From IMG/VR virus record IMGVR_UViG_2690316097_000007: DNA of 33,161 nt; one strand, given 5' to 3'. This DNA is from a virus. Lineage: Duplodnaviria > Heunggongvirae > Uroviricota > Caudoviricetes. Position numbers and translations under genes: made by a program. The notes under the pieces were generated by a model, which saw only the letters and a program-made list of their open reading frames with translations, was not told the DNA's origin and did not search any database. Below are positions 7,922 through 30,129 of this stretch, one piece after another (the stretch's first letter is position 1; the number at the start of each line of letters is the position of its first letter).

Positions 7922-10744
7922 ATGACGGCAGAGTACATCAGGGACTGGCAACAACCGCGCCACGCAGTGGGGCGTGAAGGAACGGGGATCCCCGCTCCTG
8001 AATCCGCGCTTTCCTCCTGGCTGGATGCCCACCGGGCAGAGAACGAGCGCCGCCAGGAAATGGCTGATGCGGCGTTCTCCGCCACGCCACTGGGCAACCT
8101 GATTAATAAAAGCCTGGACGCACAGGAAAAACAGGACAAAACCATCACACTGGCAGGAGACGCCAGAAAACAGGCACGCGGCGCGGTGGATGAAGCCATG
8201 GCCTCGCTGCGCCTGCTGCCGTCCTATCTGCGCGATCCGCTTATTCGCCACCTCTCCTTCCTGCGCAAAAAACAGGAAGCCGATCGCCGGAAAGGCAAAA
8301 AGAGCTGGCAGGCGGAACGCTATGCACGCGGAACCCTGCGCAAAATATTCGAACGTCTGGATCGCACTGACGGACACTGGCTGACACCGGGTTATCGCTC
8401 CCTTGCCGGACGTGAACGCCTGGACGATTTGCTTTACCTGCCGCAACTCAACAAACACCAGATACAGACGCTGGCCACCATGACGGCGGCGATGTTCAGC
8501 AGCACCTTCGAAAAACTCTGCGATGGTTTTGGCGCGACTGATGGCGAGCTGACCATGGATGTAACGCTGAAGGCGTATCAGATGCTGGCCCGCATGGCGT
8601 TACACTTACACGCCATGCCTCCGCATTATGACGCACTGACAACAGACAAAGACCGGAGGCACGAACCGGACACAGAACTGCTGCCGGGCGCAATCCTTCG
8701 CCTGACCTGTGCGGAATGGTGGAAACGCAAACTGTGGCTGTTACGTTGCGAGTGGAGAGAAGAACAACTTCGCGCCGCCTGTCTGGTTTCCAGAAAAACA
8801 TCGCCCTATCTGAGCCAGGACGCGTTAAGCGAGTTTCGCGCACAGCGCGAGAAAACACGCGATTTCCTGAAAAGTTTCATGCTGGAAAATGAAGACGGGT
8901 TCACGATTGATCTCGAGACGGTGTATTACGCGGGAGTAAGTAACCCGGTTCACCGTAAGGCAGAAATGATGGCCACCATGAAGGGGCTGGAACTTCTGGC
9001 CGAAGCCCGTGGCGACAAAGCGGTGTTTCTGACTGTCACCTGCCCGTCAAAATACCACGCCACAACGGAGAACGGTCATCCGAATCCCAAATGGAACGGG
9101 GCCACAATGCGCGACTCCAGCGATTACCTGGTTAACACGTTTTTTGCGACGGTCCGCAAAAAACTGAACCGCGACGGCCTGCGCTGGTATGGCATCCGCA
9201 CGGCGGAGCCTCACCATGACGGCACCGTGCACTGGCATATGATGGTCTTTGCTCATCCGGAAGAAATCGACACCATTGTGTCCCACACCCGCGATATTGC
9301 CATTCAGGAAGATCGTCACGAGCTGGGCGATGACATAACTCCGCGCTTTAAGGCGGAGTATGTAGACGGCTCAAAAGGCACGCCAACCAGCTACATCGCC
9401 ACCTACATCGGGAAAAACCTGGACAGCCGCGCCGTGGATGGCATCGACCCGAAAACGGGCAAGCCACGCGTTGACCACGAAACCGGAAAATCAATGGCCG
9501 AGAGCGTGGAACGCGCCATCGGCTGGGCGCGCCTTCACCGGGTCCGCCAGTTCCAGTTCTTTGGCATCCCCTCCCGCCAGGTATGGCGTGAACTGCGCCG
9601 CCTTGCCAGCCAGATGGCACGCAACCCGGAAGGCCCGCAACGGCTGAAGGATGACGCAATGGATGCGGTTCTTGCCGCCGCTGATGCCGGATGTTTTGCC
9701 ACCTACATAGAGAAACAGGGCGGCGTACTTGTTCCACGCAAAGACTACCTGATTCGCACCGCCTACGACCTCGCCGATGAGCTGAACGATTACGGCGAAC
9801 AGAGCGTACAGATTTACGGGATCTGGTCACCACTCATCGGGGAATCCTCCCGTGTGTGCACGCATCCGGATAACTGGAAGCTGGTAAGACGCAAACCGGA
9901 AGCGGAAGACAGCGCCCGCGAAAATGGTTTTGACCTTCAGGGCGGCCCTGCCGCCCCTTGGACTCGTGGCAATAACTGTCCCCGTGTACAGGAAACGGAC
10001 AACAACGGGACAGAACAGCCGGAAGAACGGCCAGCACCGTGGCCGCAGCTCCCTGACGGCGTTGATGTGGATGAATGGATGCGCTCACTGAAACGGCACG
10101 AACGCCGGGCGCTGATGCGTTCGCTTCGTGACAAACAGGCAAAAAACAGCAGTGATGAAATGCAGAGCTGGACACAGAGCCGCAAACAGCAGCGGCCTTT
10201 GCCTGATAACCACGAATTACTCGCTAAAGAATGGCGGGAGTCTGCTGAATCTCTCGGCCTGCATATCGGTGAACAACAGATGCAGCACCTGTTACGGGGC
10301 GGCAGTCTGTACGTTGACGGCAGCATCATTGCACCGCAGGGATTTGAAATTGTACGCAAACCGGATACCCGCCCGGACAGCCGAATCACGCAGCTCTGGC
10401 AGCGCCTGAGCCGTAATCATGGCGTAAGCAGCACGGAGATCCGCCATAACCCGGTCGCCAGCTATCTGACACAGCTGGGGGCATCAGACCCTGAAGCCGC
10501 CGCACGCCTGGCATCCACACTTCAGCAGGACCAGAACACCATGAAAACACCCGTTACCGTGCTTTCTGACATGCTGCGCGCCATCCGCGACGCAGAGCAC
10601 GCACAGAGAATCAGTGAAACCACTGAACGCGCCCGCCGCAAAGCAGACCTGCTGCGGGGTGGCCTGACCAGTGGAAACAAAAAACAGACAGAAACGGGAC
10701 TCACGAATCCCGTAAATGAGCAAAAAACGCGCAGCGATATATGA
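7922..10744 (+). CDS. A: Rolling-circle replication initiator endonuclease (P2 gpA-like)
   Basis: 940-aa ORF with HUH-type motif (GTVHWHMMVF) and downstream Tyr-containing segment (TSYIATYIGKN) typical of P2 A-type replication proteins. Sits after the early operon as in P2. Longer than P2 A as I recall it (about 760 aa). Confidence 0.85.
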   Translation: MTAEYIRDWQQPRHAVGREGTGIPAPESALSSWLDAHRAENERRQEMADAAFSATPLGNLINKSLDAQEKQDKTITLAGDARKQARGAVDEAMASLRLLPSYLRDPLIRHLSFLRKKQEADRRKGKKSWQAERYARGTLRKIFERLDRTDGHWLTPGYRSLAGRERLDDLLYLPQLNKHQIQTLATMTAAMFSSTFEKLCDGFGATDGELTMDVTLKAYQMLARMALHLHAMPPHYDALTTDKDRRHEPDTELLPGAILRLTCAEWWKRKLWLLRCEWREEQLRAACLVSRKTSPYLSQDALSEFRAQREKTRDFLKSFMLENEDGFTIDLETVYYAGVSNPVHRKAEMMATMKGLELLAEARGDKAVFLTVTCPSKYHATTENGHPNPKWNGATMRDSSDYLVNTFFATVRKKLNRDGLRWYGIRTAEPHHDGTVHWHMMVFAHPEEIDTIVSHTRDIAIQEDRHELGDDITPRFKAEYVDGSKGTPTSYIATYIGKNLDSRAVDGIDPKTGKPRVDHETGKSMAESVERAIGWARLHRVRQFQFFGIPSRQVWRELRRLASQMARNPEGPQRLKDDAMDAVLAAADAGCFATYIEKQGGVLVPRKDYLIRTAYDLADELNDYGEQSVQIYGIWSPLIGESSRVCTHPDNWKLVRRKPEAEDSARENGFDLQGGPAAPWTRGNNCPRVQETDNNGTEQPEERPAPWPQLPDGVDVDEWMRSLKRHERRALMRSLRDKQAKNSSDEMQSWTQSRKQQRPLPDNHELLAKEWRESAESLGLHIGEQQMQHLLRGGSLYVDGSIIAPQGFEIVRKPDTRPDSRITQLWQRLSRNHGVSSTEIRHNPVASYLTQLGASDPEAAARLASTLQQDQNTMKTPVTVLSDMLRAIRDAEHAQRISETTERARRKADLLRGGLTSGNKKQTETGLTNPVNEQKTRSDI

Positions 10745-10789
10745 AGCGCGCACAAAACAGGCAAAAACGGGATTTCAGAATCCCGTAAA
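10690..10789. repeat. Two copies of a 27-bp element with an internal palindrome
   Basis: Copy 1 at 10690-10716 (AGAAACGGGACTCACGAATCCCGTAAA, inside the 3' end of A). Copy 2 at 10763-10789 (AAAAACGGGATTTCAGAATCCCGTAAA, perfect 8-bp stem ACGGGATT/AATCCCGT). On the minus strand each hairpin is followed by a T-rich run. Confidence 0.6.
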
Positions 10790-10820
10790 CGATTAATTAA
10801 TCAACATAAGGAAAAGCGAC

Positions 10821-11780
10821 ATGAAAATTTGTATCGACGACGGCTCCACCAACATCAAGCTGGCATGGACTGAGAACGGCGAACGCCGCAACGCCATCAG
10901 CCCGAACAGCTTCAAGTCGGAATGGTCTGCGCCGTTCGGTGGCATGCAGCCCGCGAACTACATGCTTGATGGCGTGCGCTATGGTTTTGATCCGGTCAGC
11001 GATCGCTTTGTCCAGACAACCGACACGCAATACCAGTACAGCGATGTAAATGTCATTGCCATTCATCACGCGCTGGTCAAATCAGGCATCACGCCACAGG
11101 AGGTGGATGTGGTTGTCCCCCTGCCACTGAGCGAGTATTTCGACACAAACGCACAGCCGGACATGGCCAACATCAACCGCAAAAAAGCGAACGTTATGCG
11201 CCCGGTGGAGTACCAGAACGGCGAAGCATTCACTATCCGTAACGTGCGGGTTATGCCTGAATCCATTCCGGCTGGCTTTAAGGCACTGGCTGACATGAGT
11301 CCGTTTGAATCCCTGCTGATTGTGGATTTGGGCGGAACCACGCTGGATGTGGCAAAGGTTCAGGGGCAACTGGCAGGTATCAGCCAGGTGTTTTGCGATC
11401 CACACGTAGGCGTTTCTCTGATGGCCGATGCCGTACTGTCGGTGATGGCCACTAACGGTATGCGCACCAGTCACCACATCGCCAATACCATTATCGAACA
11501 TCGCCATGATGAAGCCTGGCTGCGCCAGCACATCCACAATGACGCGCATTACGCCAGCCTGATGGCGGTTATTCGTGAAAAGGAAGAAACACTGAAACAA
11601 CGCGTGATCCGCGCGCTGGCGGGTTTTTCGGGTTACGGGCGGGTGATGGTTGTCGGTGGAGGGGCGGAGATTGTGGCACCCGCTATCCGCGAAGCCTGCG
11701 GAGTTAATGCGACTTTCATCGCGGACGGGGTGCCACAGTTTGCTCTGGTTAATGGGCTGTACGCAATGGACAAGGAGTAA
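10821..11780 (+). CDS. parM: ParM/StbA-like actin-family ATPase
   Basis: 319-aa ORF. N-terminal phosphate-1 motif IDDGSTNIKLAW, then YSDVNVIAIHHAL, VMPESIPAG, LIVDLGGTTLD and VGGGAE all align in order with plasmid R1 ParM as I recall it. No search run. Confidence 0.8.
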   Translation: MKICIDDGSTNIKLAWTENGERRNAISPNSFKSEWSAPFGGMQPANYMLDGVRYGFDPVSDRFVQTTDTQYQYSDVNVIAIHHALVKSGITPQEVDVVVPLPLSEYFDTNAQPDMANINRKKANVMRPVEYQNGEAFTIRNVRVMPESIPAGFKALADMSPFESLLIVDLGGTTLDVAKVQGQLAGISQVFCDPHVGVSLMADAVLSVMATNGMRTSHHIANTIIEHRHDEAWLRQHIHNDAHYASLMAVIREKEETLKQRVIRALAGFSGYGRVMVVGGGAEIVAPAIREACGVNATFIADGVPQFALVNGLYAMDKE

Positions 11781-11784
11781 ACCA

Positions 11785-12096
11785 ATGACGACACCAACCA
11801 GACGGATAAGTTTCTATCTGAAGCCTGCGGCCGTCAAGAACGAAAGCGAAGCATGCGCCTGGCTGGGCAGCCTTACACCAGAAGCCCGCAAAAGCGGCCA
11901 ACGCGTGGCTTTTCTGGCCGGGCTGGCACTTCTGAAAATGAATCCAGCAGAGGCTTACCGACTGGCTGCATGGGCTGACGATGAGGCGTTATCGGTGACA
12001 CAAACCAGGACAGAACGCCCCGTGCCACAGCCAGTACCAACCGCACAGATAACCAGTCAGATAGCAGGGAATATCCGGGCATTATTTCCTGAATGA
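11785..12096 (+). CDS. parR: ParR-like small DNA-binding adaptor protein
   Basis: About 103 aa from ATG at 11785 (MTTPTRRISFYLKP...). Resembles R1 ParR at the N-terminus (RRxIxFxLxP ... AxLAGLAL) and at the C-terminal LFPE. Immediately downstream of parM as in parMR operons. Confidence 0.6.
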   Translation: MTTPTRRISFYLKPAAVKNESEACAWLGSLTPEARKSGQRVAFLAGLALLKMNPAEAYRLAAWADDEALSVTQTRTERPVPQPVPTAQITSQIAGNIRALFPE

Positions 12097-13157: not shown

Positions 13158-13184
13158 TGCACAATAGTGCACAAATTTGCACAA
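13158..13184. repeat. Three direct TGCACAA repeats at 10-bp phasing
   Basis: TGCACAA at 13158, 13168 and 13178, followed by a T7 run, just downstream of the last cargo ORF in the non-coding region before the portal gene. Confidence 0.6.
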
Positions 13185-13608
13185 TTTTTTTGAACGACTT
13201 TTTGCCCTTCCGGCCCGCGTGGCGGCTGGATCCGTCAAGGATCCGTGCATGCACAAAAAAACGCGTTTTTTCTGCGCGCAGGTGACGGGGGAACAGCCCG
13301 CGTTTCAGGGGGTAAATAGCATTCCCTGAACGATGTCGCAGAGATACAACAGAATGGCTGTATTTCTCACGCTGAGCGTGAAAAAGACGTGAGGGCTTTT
13401 GATTTGATGGGGTGAAAGGTAAGGCCGTCAAAATCGCACTGAGACGGCGAGAATATGCAGTCAACGAGGTGGGATTGCGTAAGAGTCTGACTGTCGATGA
13501 TGGCAATCAGCAGGAAAGCGTCGTGAAATTATCTGACTGATACAGGAGCTGGAGAGTCGGGGCATAAATTTTTTATGCCCCGGCGAAGCAGCAGACAAGC
13601 GAAGCGCG

Positions 13609-28673: not shown

Positions 28674-29273
28674 ATGCGTAAAGTTTGTGCAGCCATTTTG
28701 TCCGCAGCCATCTGTCTGTCCGTATCCGGTGCGCCTGCATGGGCGTCTGAACATCAGTCCACACTGAGCGCGGGGTATCTTCATGCCCGTACGAACGCTC
28801 CCGGCAGCGATAATCTGAACGGGATTAACGTGAAATACCGTTATGAGTTTACGGACGCGCTGGGGCTGATTACGTCCTTCAGTTATGCCAATGCTGAGGA
28901 TGAGCAAAAAACGCACTACAGCGATACCCGCTGGCATGAAGATTCCGTGCGTAACCGCTGGTTCAGCGTGATGGCGGGGCCGTCTGTACGCGTGAATGAA
29001 TGGTTCAGCGCGTATGCGATGGTGGGTGTGGCTTACAGCCGTGTGTCGACTTTCTCCGGGGATTATCTCCGCGTAACTGACAACAAGGGGAAAACGCACG
29101 ATGTGCTGACCGGAAGTGATGACGGTCGCCACAGCAACACGTCTCTGGCGTGGGGGGCTGGCGTGCAGTTTAACCCGACCGAATCCGTGACCATTGACCT
29201 TGCTTATGAAGGTTCCGGTAGTGGTGACTGGCGAACGGATGCATTTATTGTTGGTATCGGATACCGTATCTGA
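28674..29273 (+). CDS. lom: Lom-like outer-membrane beta-barrel protein (Ail/Lom family)
   Basis: 199-aa ORF with signal peptide and C-terminal aromatic residue pattern (IVGIGYRI), in the lambda position between J and stf. Confidence 0.85.
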   Translation: MRKVCAAILSAAICLSVSGAPAWASEHQSTLSAGYLHARTNAPGSDNLNGINVKYRYEFTDALGLITSFSYANAEDEQKTHYSDTRWHEDSVRNRWFSVMAGPSVRVNEWFSAYAMVGVAYSRVSTFSGDYLRVTDNKGKTHDVLTGSDDGRHSNTSLAWGAGVQFNPTESVTIDLAYEGSGSGDWRTDAFIVGIGYRI

Positions 29274-29424: not shown

Positions 29425-30129
29425 ATGACAGTAAAAATTTCTGGCGTGCTTAAAGATGGCACAGGAAAACCAGTACAGAACTGCACCATTGTGCTGAAGG
29501 CCAGACGAACCAGCAGCACGATGGTGGTGAACACGGTGGCCTCTGAAAATCCGGATGAAGCCGGACGTTACAGCATGGATGTTGAGCATGGTCAGTACAG
29601 CGTCACCCTGCTGGTTGAAGGTTTTCCGCCTTCACATGCCGGGACCATTACCGTCTATGAAGGTTCCAGACCAGGTACGCTGAATGATTTTCTCGGTGCC
29701 ATGACGGAGGATGATGTCCGACCGGAGGCACTGCGCCGCTTTGAGCAGATGGTGGAAGAGGTGTCACGTAACGCCTCCGCGGTTGCACAGAATACGGCAG
29801 CCGCGAAAAAATCAGCCAGCGAGGCGGCAACTCATGCAACCGATGCTGCAGCCTCAGCACGTGCCGCCAGCACGTCAGCCGGACAGGCCGCGTCGTCGGC
29901 TCAGTCAGCGTCTTCCAGCGCAGGAACGGCATCGACAAAGGCCCGTGAAGCAGCAAAAAGTGCTGCTGCAGAGTCATCAAAAAGCGCGGCAGCTACCAGC
30001 GCCAGTGCCGCGAAAACGTCAGAAACGAATGCCGCAGCATCACAAAAATCGGCAGCCACTTCTGCATCCACAGCGACCACGAAGGCGTCAGAAGCTGCCA
30101 CCTCGGCACGGGGTGNATTAGCCAGGTAA
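29425..30129 (+). pseudogene. Truncated N-terminal copy of a side tail fibre gene (stf-like, about 231 codons)
   Basis: N-terminus MTVKISGVLKDGTGKPVQNCTIVLKAR... is about 90% identical to the start of the full stf at 30182 and matches the lambda Stf N-terminus as recalled. Reading frame ends just after an N at 30116 and is followed by a terminator. Confidence 0.65.

Follow-up and report, generated by a model that had tools for sequence, protein, structure and literature searches.

What is the function of two palindromic elements that lie 73 bp apart, one inside the end of a phage replication gene and the other immediately upstream of a gene for an actin-like partition ATPase? The question is raised by the junction between gene A and parM in a stretch of viral DNA of 33,161 bases (IMG/VR record IMGVR_UViG_2690316097_000007; the whole stretch is called the window hereafter). 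The window belongs to a P88-like prophage (Xuanwuvirus, Peduoviridae, P2 family): Escherichia phage P88 is 99.1% identical to it over positions 10400-11100, and every one of the 14 matching phage records is P88-like. An earlier note on this DNA had offered two readings of the pair, a centromere or operator site bound by the ParR-like protein encoded next to parM or, alternatively, a set of minus-strand transcription terminators. The first of these has gained comparative support at the level of sequence, since the elements accompany a true ParM/ParR pair, track parM between lineages and are found with one ParR clade only. It is thus likely that the two elements together are the cis site (parC, acting as centromere and/or operator) of a type II ParMRC partition system and that they are bound by ParR.

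The paired elements and the partition genes

The pattern AAACGGGA-N6-AATCCCGTAAA has two matches in the window, at 10692-10716 (AAACGGGACTCACGAATCCCGTAAA) and 10765-10789 (AAACGGGATTTCAGAATCCCGTAAA), and no others with up to three mismatches allowed; none of 100 dinucleotide-preserving shuffles of the window matched it. The two copies 73 bp apart are hence borne out by the pattern search, with a chance expectation of none, and the search for extra copies in the prophage that the earlier note had advised yields nothing beyond the pair. The repeat is in fact wider than was described, extending over 42 nt with 81% identity between the copies and a start-to-start distance of 73 bp (Table 1). Each 42-nt unit contains a 20-bp dyad, ACGGGA(C/T)T-N4-AATCCCGT. 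The inverted repeats that had been noticed are real: the dyad of the proximal copy (copy 2) has perfect 8-bp arms, ACGGGATT and AATCCCGT, around a 4-nt centre, and that of the distal copy (copy 1) has one arm mismatch in the window (ACGGGACT). The placement relative to the genes had also been read correctly, copy 1 occupying codons 923-932 of the 940 of gene A, and copy 2 being intergenic and ending 31 nt before the parM ATG at 10821. The dyad cores are located at -127 and -54 from this ATG. Repeat searches return the two-copy 42-nt family only and no clear tandem array, the same procedure yielding the 11-bp array in the R1 control.

A possible third copy at 28819-28841, ACGGGATT-N7-AATACCGT, has another spacing and one mismatch, lies inside an open reading frame (ORF) of the tail region and was judged to be due to chance. 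The number of half-sites in the window is at the chance level (28 versus 24 expected). When viral contigs were searched for ACGGGATT-N4-AATCCCGT, 115 of the 120 matching stretches were found beside parM or gpA, the other five being unrelated singletons. The occurrence of the motif as a generic terminator in unrelated contexts, which the earlier note had named, together with a lack of ParR binding, as a refutation of the ParR-site reading, is not seen.

Judged from their sequences, parM and parR are true R1-family (type II) partition genes. ParM matches the structure of R1 ParM (1mwk) over residues 2-316 with an E value of 5.9e-92. ParR has an N-terminal strand, TRRISFYLKP, and a conserved C-terminal tail, NIRALFPE, in which N96, I97, F101 and P102 are invariant and NI..LFPE is retained even in an allele with 52% identity. 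In hhalign, a profile built from the phage ParR clade could be aligned with a pB171-type ParR over residues 7-67, corresponding to the ribbon-helix-helix domain (probability 75%, E value 2.6e-5); a search of the Protein Data Bank (PDB) with the single ParR sequence as query gave no match. The elements form a repeated cis site directly upstream of parM, the same place as that of known type II parC sites (PMC5016525). Gene A is context only and lies outside the par module, its 3′ end overlapping the distal element.

Table 1. Features of the A-parM-parR locus (positions in the window)
Feature	Position	Strand	Remarks
Distal 42-nt repeat unit (copy 1), within last codons of A	10678-10719		Direct-repeat family D1
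Distal dyad core, ACGGGACT-CACG-AATCCCGT	10694-10713		GGG 10696-10698, N10, CCC 10709-10711
Inter-dyad spacer, 53 bp, A-rich, with weak iteron-like AAAC(A/G)(G/C) words; holds the A stop codon	10714-10766
Proximal 42-nt repeat unit (copy 2), A-parM intergenic	10751-10792		81% identical to copy 1
Proximal dyad core, ACGGGATT-TCAG-AATCCCGT, perfect 8-bp arms	10767-10786		GGG 10769-10771, N10, CCC 10782-10784
TTAATCAA box (10797-10804), then parM Shine-Dalgarno AAGGA (~10809-10813)	10797-10813	+
Gene A, P2-type rolling-circle replication initiator, 940 aa	7922-10744	+	Pfam Phage_GPA 6.6e-131; 30% identity to P2 A
Gene A stop codon	10742-10744	+
parM, actin-like partition ATPase, 319 aa	10821-11780	+	Pfam StbA_N 4.9e-81, ParM C-terminal domain 1.3e-68
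parR, ribbon-helix-helix adaptor, 103 aa	11785-12096	+	Pfam PF10784 Plasmid_stab_B 2e-23

Some smaller features accompany the pair. The TTAATCAA box, placed 17-24 nt upstream of the parM ATG, is kept in E. coli, Hafnia (L089 3477-3484) and Plesiomonas (L091 3473-3480) despite the diverged surroundings, and could belong to a weak -10 element or to the region of translation initiation. The word AAAC(A/G)(G/C) occurs on the plus strand at 10682, 10692, 10725, 10755 and 10765, that is, five times in 131 bp versus 0.3 expected, the offsets of 0, 10, 43, 73 and 83 being roughly in helical phase. From their sequence these words may be weak extra ParR sub-sites reminiscent of the R1 iterons. As the excess was spotted post hoc and partly reflects the duplication, a reading of the A-rich flanks as 11-bp iterons was not adopted.

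Conservation of the dyads in distant prophages and their link to one ParR clade

A search for ParM homologues, with look-ups of their genomic context, revealed the order A ... parM parR in P2-like prophages of four more genera, the identity of ParM being 62% in Hafnia and in Plesiomonas, 58% in Serratia and 54% in Enterobacter. A one-genome-per-species scan gave 72 more ParM loci, mostly plasmid-borne. Four lineages each have the skeleton of the dyad, GGG-N10-CCC, exactly twice within 170 nt upstream of parM: at -125 and -52 from the ATG in both E. coli and Salmonella (spacing 73), at -128 and -55 in Hafnia (spacing 73) and at -131 and -59 in Plesiomonas (spacing 72). In full scans of the window and of the Plesiomonas (L091) and Hafnia (L089) sequences, where the background of the motif is 0.18-0.63 per kb, these are the sole pair at a spacing of 71-74 bp. 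The elements read CGGG-ACAACAAAAA-CCCG and CGGG-ACAACACTAA-CCCA in Plesiomonas, and TGGG-ATTGAGGAAA-CCCA and CGGG-TTCATTAAAT-CCCA in Hafnia, the inner arms (ATT/AAT) being lost outside the E. coli/Salmonella lineage. When E. coli, Plesiomonas and Hafnia are compared without gaps, 11 of 23 positions of the distal element and 10 of 23 of the proximal one are identical in all three, as against 0/29 in the flank that precedes the proximal element. The spacer between the dyads has kept its length across lineages and not its sequence. Maintenance of the pair at the same spacing amid DNA that can no longer be aligned requires selection. Scans of IMG/VR for extra members of the Hafnia lineage retrieved one locus, which is of the other clade, and those for the Plesiomonas lineage none.

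The gene that precedes parM is not the same in these lineages. In Hafnia an unrelated ORF of 167 aa is found between A and parM and both elements are in its 3′ end, the codon phase of GGG differing from that in the window. The A protein of Plesiomonas shares no homology with that of the window over its last ~90 residues, yet the distal element lies again in the last codons. The elements hence belong to the par module and not to gene A, and they are constrained as DNA and not as coding sequence.

The presence of the dyads coincides with one type of ParR. Every motif-bearing lineage has a ParR strand of the form TRR(I/V)SFYL(K/N)P, and GGG-N10-CCC was found upstream of parM in none of the 72 control loci of other ParR clades. 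Sister P2-like prophages, from Serratia, Enterobacter and an IMG/VR contig (L167), have a ParR strand NRKISFYLKP; in this group the region upstream is laid out as a long inverted repeat of ATAGAAAAAT / TTTCT(A/G)TTTC words. The repeats of other ParR clades were assigned by eye from the printed sequences of several loci: the RRTIAFKL strand of R1 goes with 11-bp AAACCC-type iterons in two clusters, RRKITFYL with TTCTC iterons that flank a clear promoter, and KKFTLYL, the pB171 type, with two to four ACTCA..TGAGT dyads of which the last stands just before the ribosome-binding site. For pB171 itself, locus L087, whose ParR matches PDB entry 2JD3, served as a stand-in. The association of an arginine-rich TRR strand with GGG/CCC, as opposed to NRK with A/T-rich words, is suggestive at the sequence level and is seen in few lineages.

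The sister-group layout deserves a description of its own. It consists of GGGAAC-(A/G)ATATAGAAAAAT ... ATTTTTCT(A/G)TTTC-GTTCCC around a small G+C hairpin (L092 3355-3480, L093 3360-3480 and L167 1360-1480). The word CAATATAGAAAAAT is common to this layout and to the iterons upstream of the IncL/M (pOXA-48-type) parM (L086 689-801), and the strand of the pOXA-48 ParR is NRKCSFYI, versus NRKISFYL in the Serratia and Enterobacter prophages.

Variation among close relatives was followed in 80 IMG/VR loci with ParM 98-100% identical. The commonest form of copy 1 is the perfect dyad ACGGGATT-CACA-AATCCCGT, found in exactly this form in 31 of the 80 loci, and the copy is perfect in most relatives. 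The 4-nt centres are the most variable positions, with scattered single changes in the arms. ParR occurs in P88-like phages in two allelic forms that are 52% identical (window 11785-12096 versus L002 2501-2815), which agree in their first 18 residues (MTTPTRRISFYLKPAAVK) and in the C-terminal NI..LFPE; between them ParM is 99% identical and the elements are nearly so, one base differing in the centre of copy 1. This pattern fits a reading of the sites by the N-terminal strand, as the sequences stand, without being proof of it. The middle and C-terminal segment of the alleles looks like a mosaic, possibly a recombination cassette that reaches into the variable downstream cargo region.

Some comparisons that might have served as controls were discarded. 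Covariation of ParR and site within the P88-like group was unusable, the N-terminal strand of ParR being invariant in all 84 relatives found, and a P88-type A without parMR was not available as a control for the distal copy, the C-terminal domain of A being confined to the same 14 phage records. In the chromosome of E. coli EC7518 (L293 2420-2545) a DUF4761 gene is fused straight to ...TAAACGATTAATTAATCAA-parM. This is a prophage deletion derivative in which gene A and both dyads are gone, the endpoint of the deletion falling just past the proximal element; having lost A together with the elements, it was set aside as an element-less control. Contigs labelled as Vagococcus, Streptomyces, Clostridiales, Lachnospiraceae and Micromonospora (L096, L120, L121, L134 and L163) hold E. 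coli-type P88 or R1 parM loci at 97-100% of the enterobacterial sequence and are most likely assembly contamination.

The A-parM junction with both elements (10640-10830) is widespread, being present in 1302 of 5426 complete E. coli genomes (24%), O157:H7 and O26 strains included, with up to three copies per genome in some. Of the 1441 copies in these genomes 1439 are chromosomal, and the matches in plasmid records are prophages within plasmids or phage-sized records. NZ_CP148288.1 (34,461 bp) and NZ_CP049283.1 (26,762 bp) are phage-sized, non-mobilizable 'plasmids' with ParR proteins 94% and 56% identical, respectively. These records may represent circularly assembled P88-like genomes or true episomes, a distinction relevant to the question of a plasmid state in which the par module would be of use.

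Proposed binding of ParR and alternative readings

The conserved GGG/CCC dyad, with half-sites ~13 bp apart, and the separation of the pair by about seven turns fit a dimeric or tetrameric DNA-binding protein, and we propose a model in which this protein is ParR. In the model, each GGGA / TCCC half-site would receive in its major groove the N-terminal β-ribbon (TRRISFYL) of one ribbon-helix-helix dimer of ParR. Because the centres of the half-sites, ~13 bp apart, are too distant for one ribbon, a dimer of dimers would occupy each 20-bp dyad. The distance of 73 bp corresponds to about seven helical turns, so that both dyads would face the same side of the helix, and they could be bridged or wrapped into a single ParR-DNA complex in the manner of the split R1 parC. 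The clustered ParR tails (NI..LFPE) would then capture the ends of ParM filaments, coupling the phage DNA to the filament, and the same complex could also limit transcription into parM-parR. We infer in this way the binding of ParR, its stoichiometry, the looping, the repression and the point in the phage life cycle where the system comes into play. The P2 gene that follows A overlaps the end of A, and by analogy parM-parR may be the tail of the early operon; in that case the module would act on excised or replicating phage DNA, comparable to the prophage actin system AlpAC/alpS.

Several findings weigh against this interpretation: (i) there are just two strong sites, versus ten iterons in R1 and eight in pSK41, and two dyads may recruit too little ParR for a ring-shaped segrosome; (ii) the element is an integrated prophage and not a low-copy plasmid, so that classical plasmid partition is not obviously needed; (iii) within the P88-like set the arms are not clearly more conserved than the adjoining intergenic DNA, the divergence being too low for a clean footprint; (iv) about 20 of about 80 relatives have CCT replacing CCC in the proximal right arm; (v) the link between ParR clade and motif is drawn from three deep lineages only, and (vi) no sigma-70-like promoter was found between or around the elements in a scan of 10300-11000, nor in Hafnia and Plesiomonas. 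The last finding leaves the operator role unsupported, and the parM promoter of which the earlier note speaks was an assumption. The absence of a promoter carries little weight, since the scan misses the known R1 promoter, yet it finds one between the iteron clusters of L105, and a promoter may lie within the 53-bp spacer.

The alternative already raised in the earlier note, that the hairpins are minus-strand intrinsic terminators whose primary role is to keep antisense transcripts out of gene A and the early operon, agrees with the sequence in E. coli. The T-rich minus-strand run that had been reported after each hairpin is seen at both, the A-tract that gives rise to it is within the 42-nt repeat, and both elements are detected by a simple terminator scan (8-pair stem, four G-C pairs, 4-nt loop, T-rich tail). 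The minus-strand RNA hairpins have folding energies of -10.2 (distal) and -10.4 kcal/mol (proximal), with z of about -2.4 and -2.8, and some relatives have a minus-strand cargo gene right after parR. These properties are not maintained in Plesiomonas and Hafnia, where the distal elements reach -4.6 and -5.8 kcal/mol, respectively, with stems of ~4 bp, and are no better than shuffles, whereas the proximal ones reach -16.2 and -9.3 kcal/mol through outer flanking pairs and not through a stem of the E. coli type. T-runs are absent at all four of these elements and the terminator scan calls none of them, although position and spacing are kept.

The region downstream does not favour the terminator reading either. 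Between 10800 and 13600 of the window there is no convincing minus-strand gene, only short ORFs of which the longest has 172 aa and all of which overlap plus-strand genes, and no promoter-like site on the minus strand; with a separate hairpin past the portal gene, little would be left for such terminators to stop. Two terminators placed 73 bp apart and 1.3 kb beyond any possible source would be an odd design. Moreover, the common variant GCGGGATTTAAAAATCCTGT (15 loci) disrupts two minus-strand pairs. In a pooled alignment of 34 distinct elements, changes on both sides affect three of the eight pairs and 4 of 272 cells, the two central G-C pairs are invariant and distant lineages have lost the inner three; at the sequence level, covariation thus gives no support for selection on pairing. 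Nor would a terminator, or any RNA hairpin, be expected to select for a dyad skeleton at conserved spacing. As stem and T-run are preserved in the E. coli/Salmonella lineage alone, the function common to the lineages is not termination. The terminator proposal is therefore upheld as a description of the E. coli sequence and fails in the distant lineages, and as a primary role it is improbable. A secondary, lineage-specific terminator role in E. coli could exist alongside ParR binding.

Dyad symmetry together with conserved helical phasing points to a dimeric DNA-binding protein without identifying which, so that a phage regulator or a host factor could be considered in place of ParR. The pair could likewise be an accessory replication site for protein A, considering that the distal copy lies within gene A and that the A protein of P2 acts in cis. 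The distribution of the elements makes both proposals quite improbable: they go together with parM-parR, whichever A protein or upstream gene is present, they occur in a single ParR clade only, and no motif is found in the P2-like prophages of Serratia and Enterobacter, which possess A as well as parMR. A reading of the pair as the origin itself was rejected, the homologue of the P2 ori nick being ~750 bp upstream. In P2 the nick is at 29892, inside gene A, within ...GCGCCTCGGAGTCCTGTCAATAAC...; the nick region GCCGCGCCTCGGAGTCCTGTCAATAACTGT has its homologue in the window as GCCGCCCCTTGGACTCGTGGCAATAACTGT at ~9941-9982 (gene A codons ~674-687), which from its sequence is probably the replication origin of the prophage.

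A role of the plus-strand hairpins in the A-to-parM transcript, in RNA processing, mRNA stabilisation or the tuning of parM translation, is very improbable. Their energies of -9.0 and -10.7 kcal/mol (z of -2.4 and -3.2) would allow it, the A-to-G and C-to-T changes often seen in copy 2 preserve pairing, as G.U, only on the plus strand, and the overlap of the gene after A in P2 with the end of A is consistent with co-transcription. Other variants favour the minus strand, however, so that there is no consistent strand bias, and the stem is lost in Plesiomonas and Hafnia on this strand too. The proximal hairpin ends 22 nt before the Shine-Dalgarno sequence, which it does not occlude, and no Rfam match was obtained for 10400-11000 on either strand with E values up to 1. 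The conserved spacing of 72-73 bp has no obvious meaning for two independent small hairpins. That the pair has no function and was left behind by a local 73-bp duplication or when a par cassette was inserted, as 42-nt direct repeats straddling a gene end like a duplication scar might suggest, is scarcely credible for a pair kept at the same spacing where the surrounding DNA no longer aligns.

Some distance downstream, the hairpin GGGGCATAAATTTTTTATGCCCC, with T-runs on both sides, is located at ~13556-13575, directly after the portal gene. Near it (13160-13330) are an AT-rich palindromic stretch and G+C-rich repeats, which probably include cos.

If ParR binds the dyads, a partition system of an integrating P2-like phage would have its cis site there, and they would constitute a compact and easily manipulated parC, of ~100 bp and two sites, with which the minimum number of ParR dimers for segrosome formation and filament capture could be examined. 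It is conceivable, though rather doubtful, that the ParMRC system of P88-like phages is complete and active, with a minimal two-dyad centromere, and that, rather than securing inheritance in the way of a plasmid, it acts by analogy with AlpAC on excised, replicating phage DNA or, instead, serves as an incompatibility weapon against superinfecting relatives. In the AlpAC-like case, genomes would be positioned or separated during lytic growth or a transient episomal state. Were this true, an E. coli phage would possess its own cytoskeleton, with two ParR dimers of dimers seven helical turns apart sufficing to cap a ParM filament. The literature searched, with incomplete coverage, contained no study of ParMRC in P2-like phages. 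The ParR strands and their repeats also compose a natural specificity series, TRR(I/V)SFYL with GGG-N10-CCC, NRKISFYL with the ATAGAAAAAT type, RRKITFYL with TTCTC and KKFTLYL with ACTCA..TGAGT, that could reveal how the β-ribbon of ParR reads DNA and how partition incompatibility groups arise. The surprise is moderate because such a site is an expected component of a par operon. The element is of an ordinary kind in an unusual and unstudied setting, and its interest comes from that setting, its small size and its prevalence.

Comparison with known partition systems

The R1 system is the nearest in its proteins. Its ParM is a close homologue, its ParR belongs to the same Pfam family (PF10784), and its parC is placed directly upstream of parM, with A-rich flanks and split in two around a central stretch of ~50 bp; in R1 this central stretch holds the promoter and loops out (PMC5016525). 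The two sites differ in their repeats, ten tandem 11-bp A/C-rich iterons of the AAACCC type in R1 versus two 20-bp GGG-N10-CCC dyads in the prophage, which has no tandem iterons of the R1 kind. The ParR strands differ as well (RRTIAFKL versus TRRISFYL), and R1 is a plasmid, whereas here the carrier is an integrated prophage and the distal part of the site overlaps a coding region.

The ParR of pB171 binds two repeats upstream of parM, and all characterised ParR proteins bind direct repeats according to a 2022 paper (PMC9426499). In the pB171-type locus L087 there are two copies of CTCA(A/G)ATTGAGTATT with internal dyads, ending just before the parM ribosome-binding site, and we infer that these are the published ParR sites of pB171. 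In its general arrangement this locus is like that of the prophage. This type departs from the prophage in its motif (ACTCA..TGAGT), in its spacing (41 versus 73 bp), in its ParR strand (KKFTLYLHP) and in being a double-par locus of a plasmid. The reservation once expressed about the ParR reading, that R1 parC uses direct iterons, is no obstacle, since the two elements are themselves direct repeats and pB171-type loci have repeats that contain dyads.

Palindromic repeats are also found in the chromosomal cParC of Clostridium botulinum, which has three of them, bound by cParR in electrophoretic mobility shift assays (PMC12270681, 2025). That system resembles the prophage one in having chromosome-borne ParM and ParR together with palindromic parC repeats, and differs from it in the number of palindromes, in its distant proteins, in its Firmicute host and in that no link with a P2-like phage has been described. 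With the two repeats of pB171 and the palindromes of C. botulinum, a two-site parC that contains dyads has precedents.

As regards function, the AlpAC/alpS system of the Corynebacterium glutamicum prophage CGP3 is needed for efficient replication of phage DNA and not for plasmid inheritance (PMC4446434). It differs from the prophage ParMRC in that the adaptor gene comes first, the repeats are 24 short TTAAnnG words and the proteins are not close to R1 ParM and ParR. Nevertheless, it shares with it an integrated prophage, an actin-like filament protein and an adaptor that binds repeats upstream of the operon, and by this analogy AlpAC/alpS would be the best functional model for the ParMRC of P88-like prophages.

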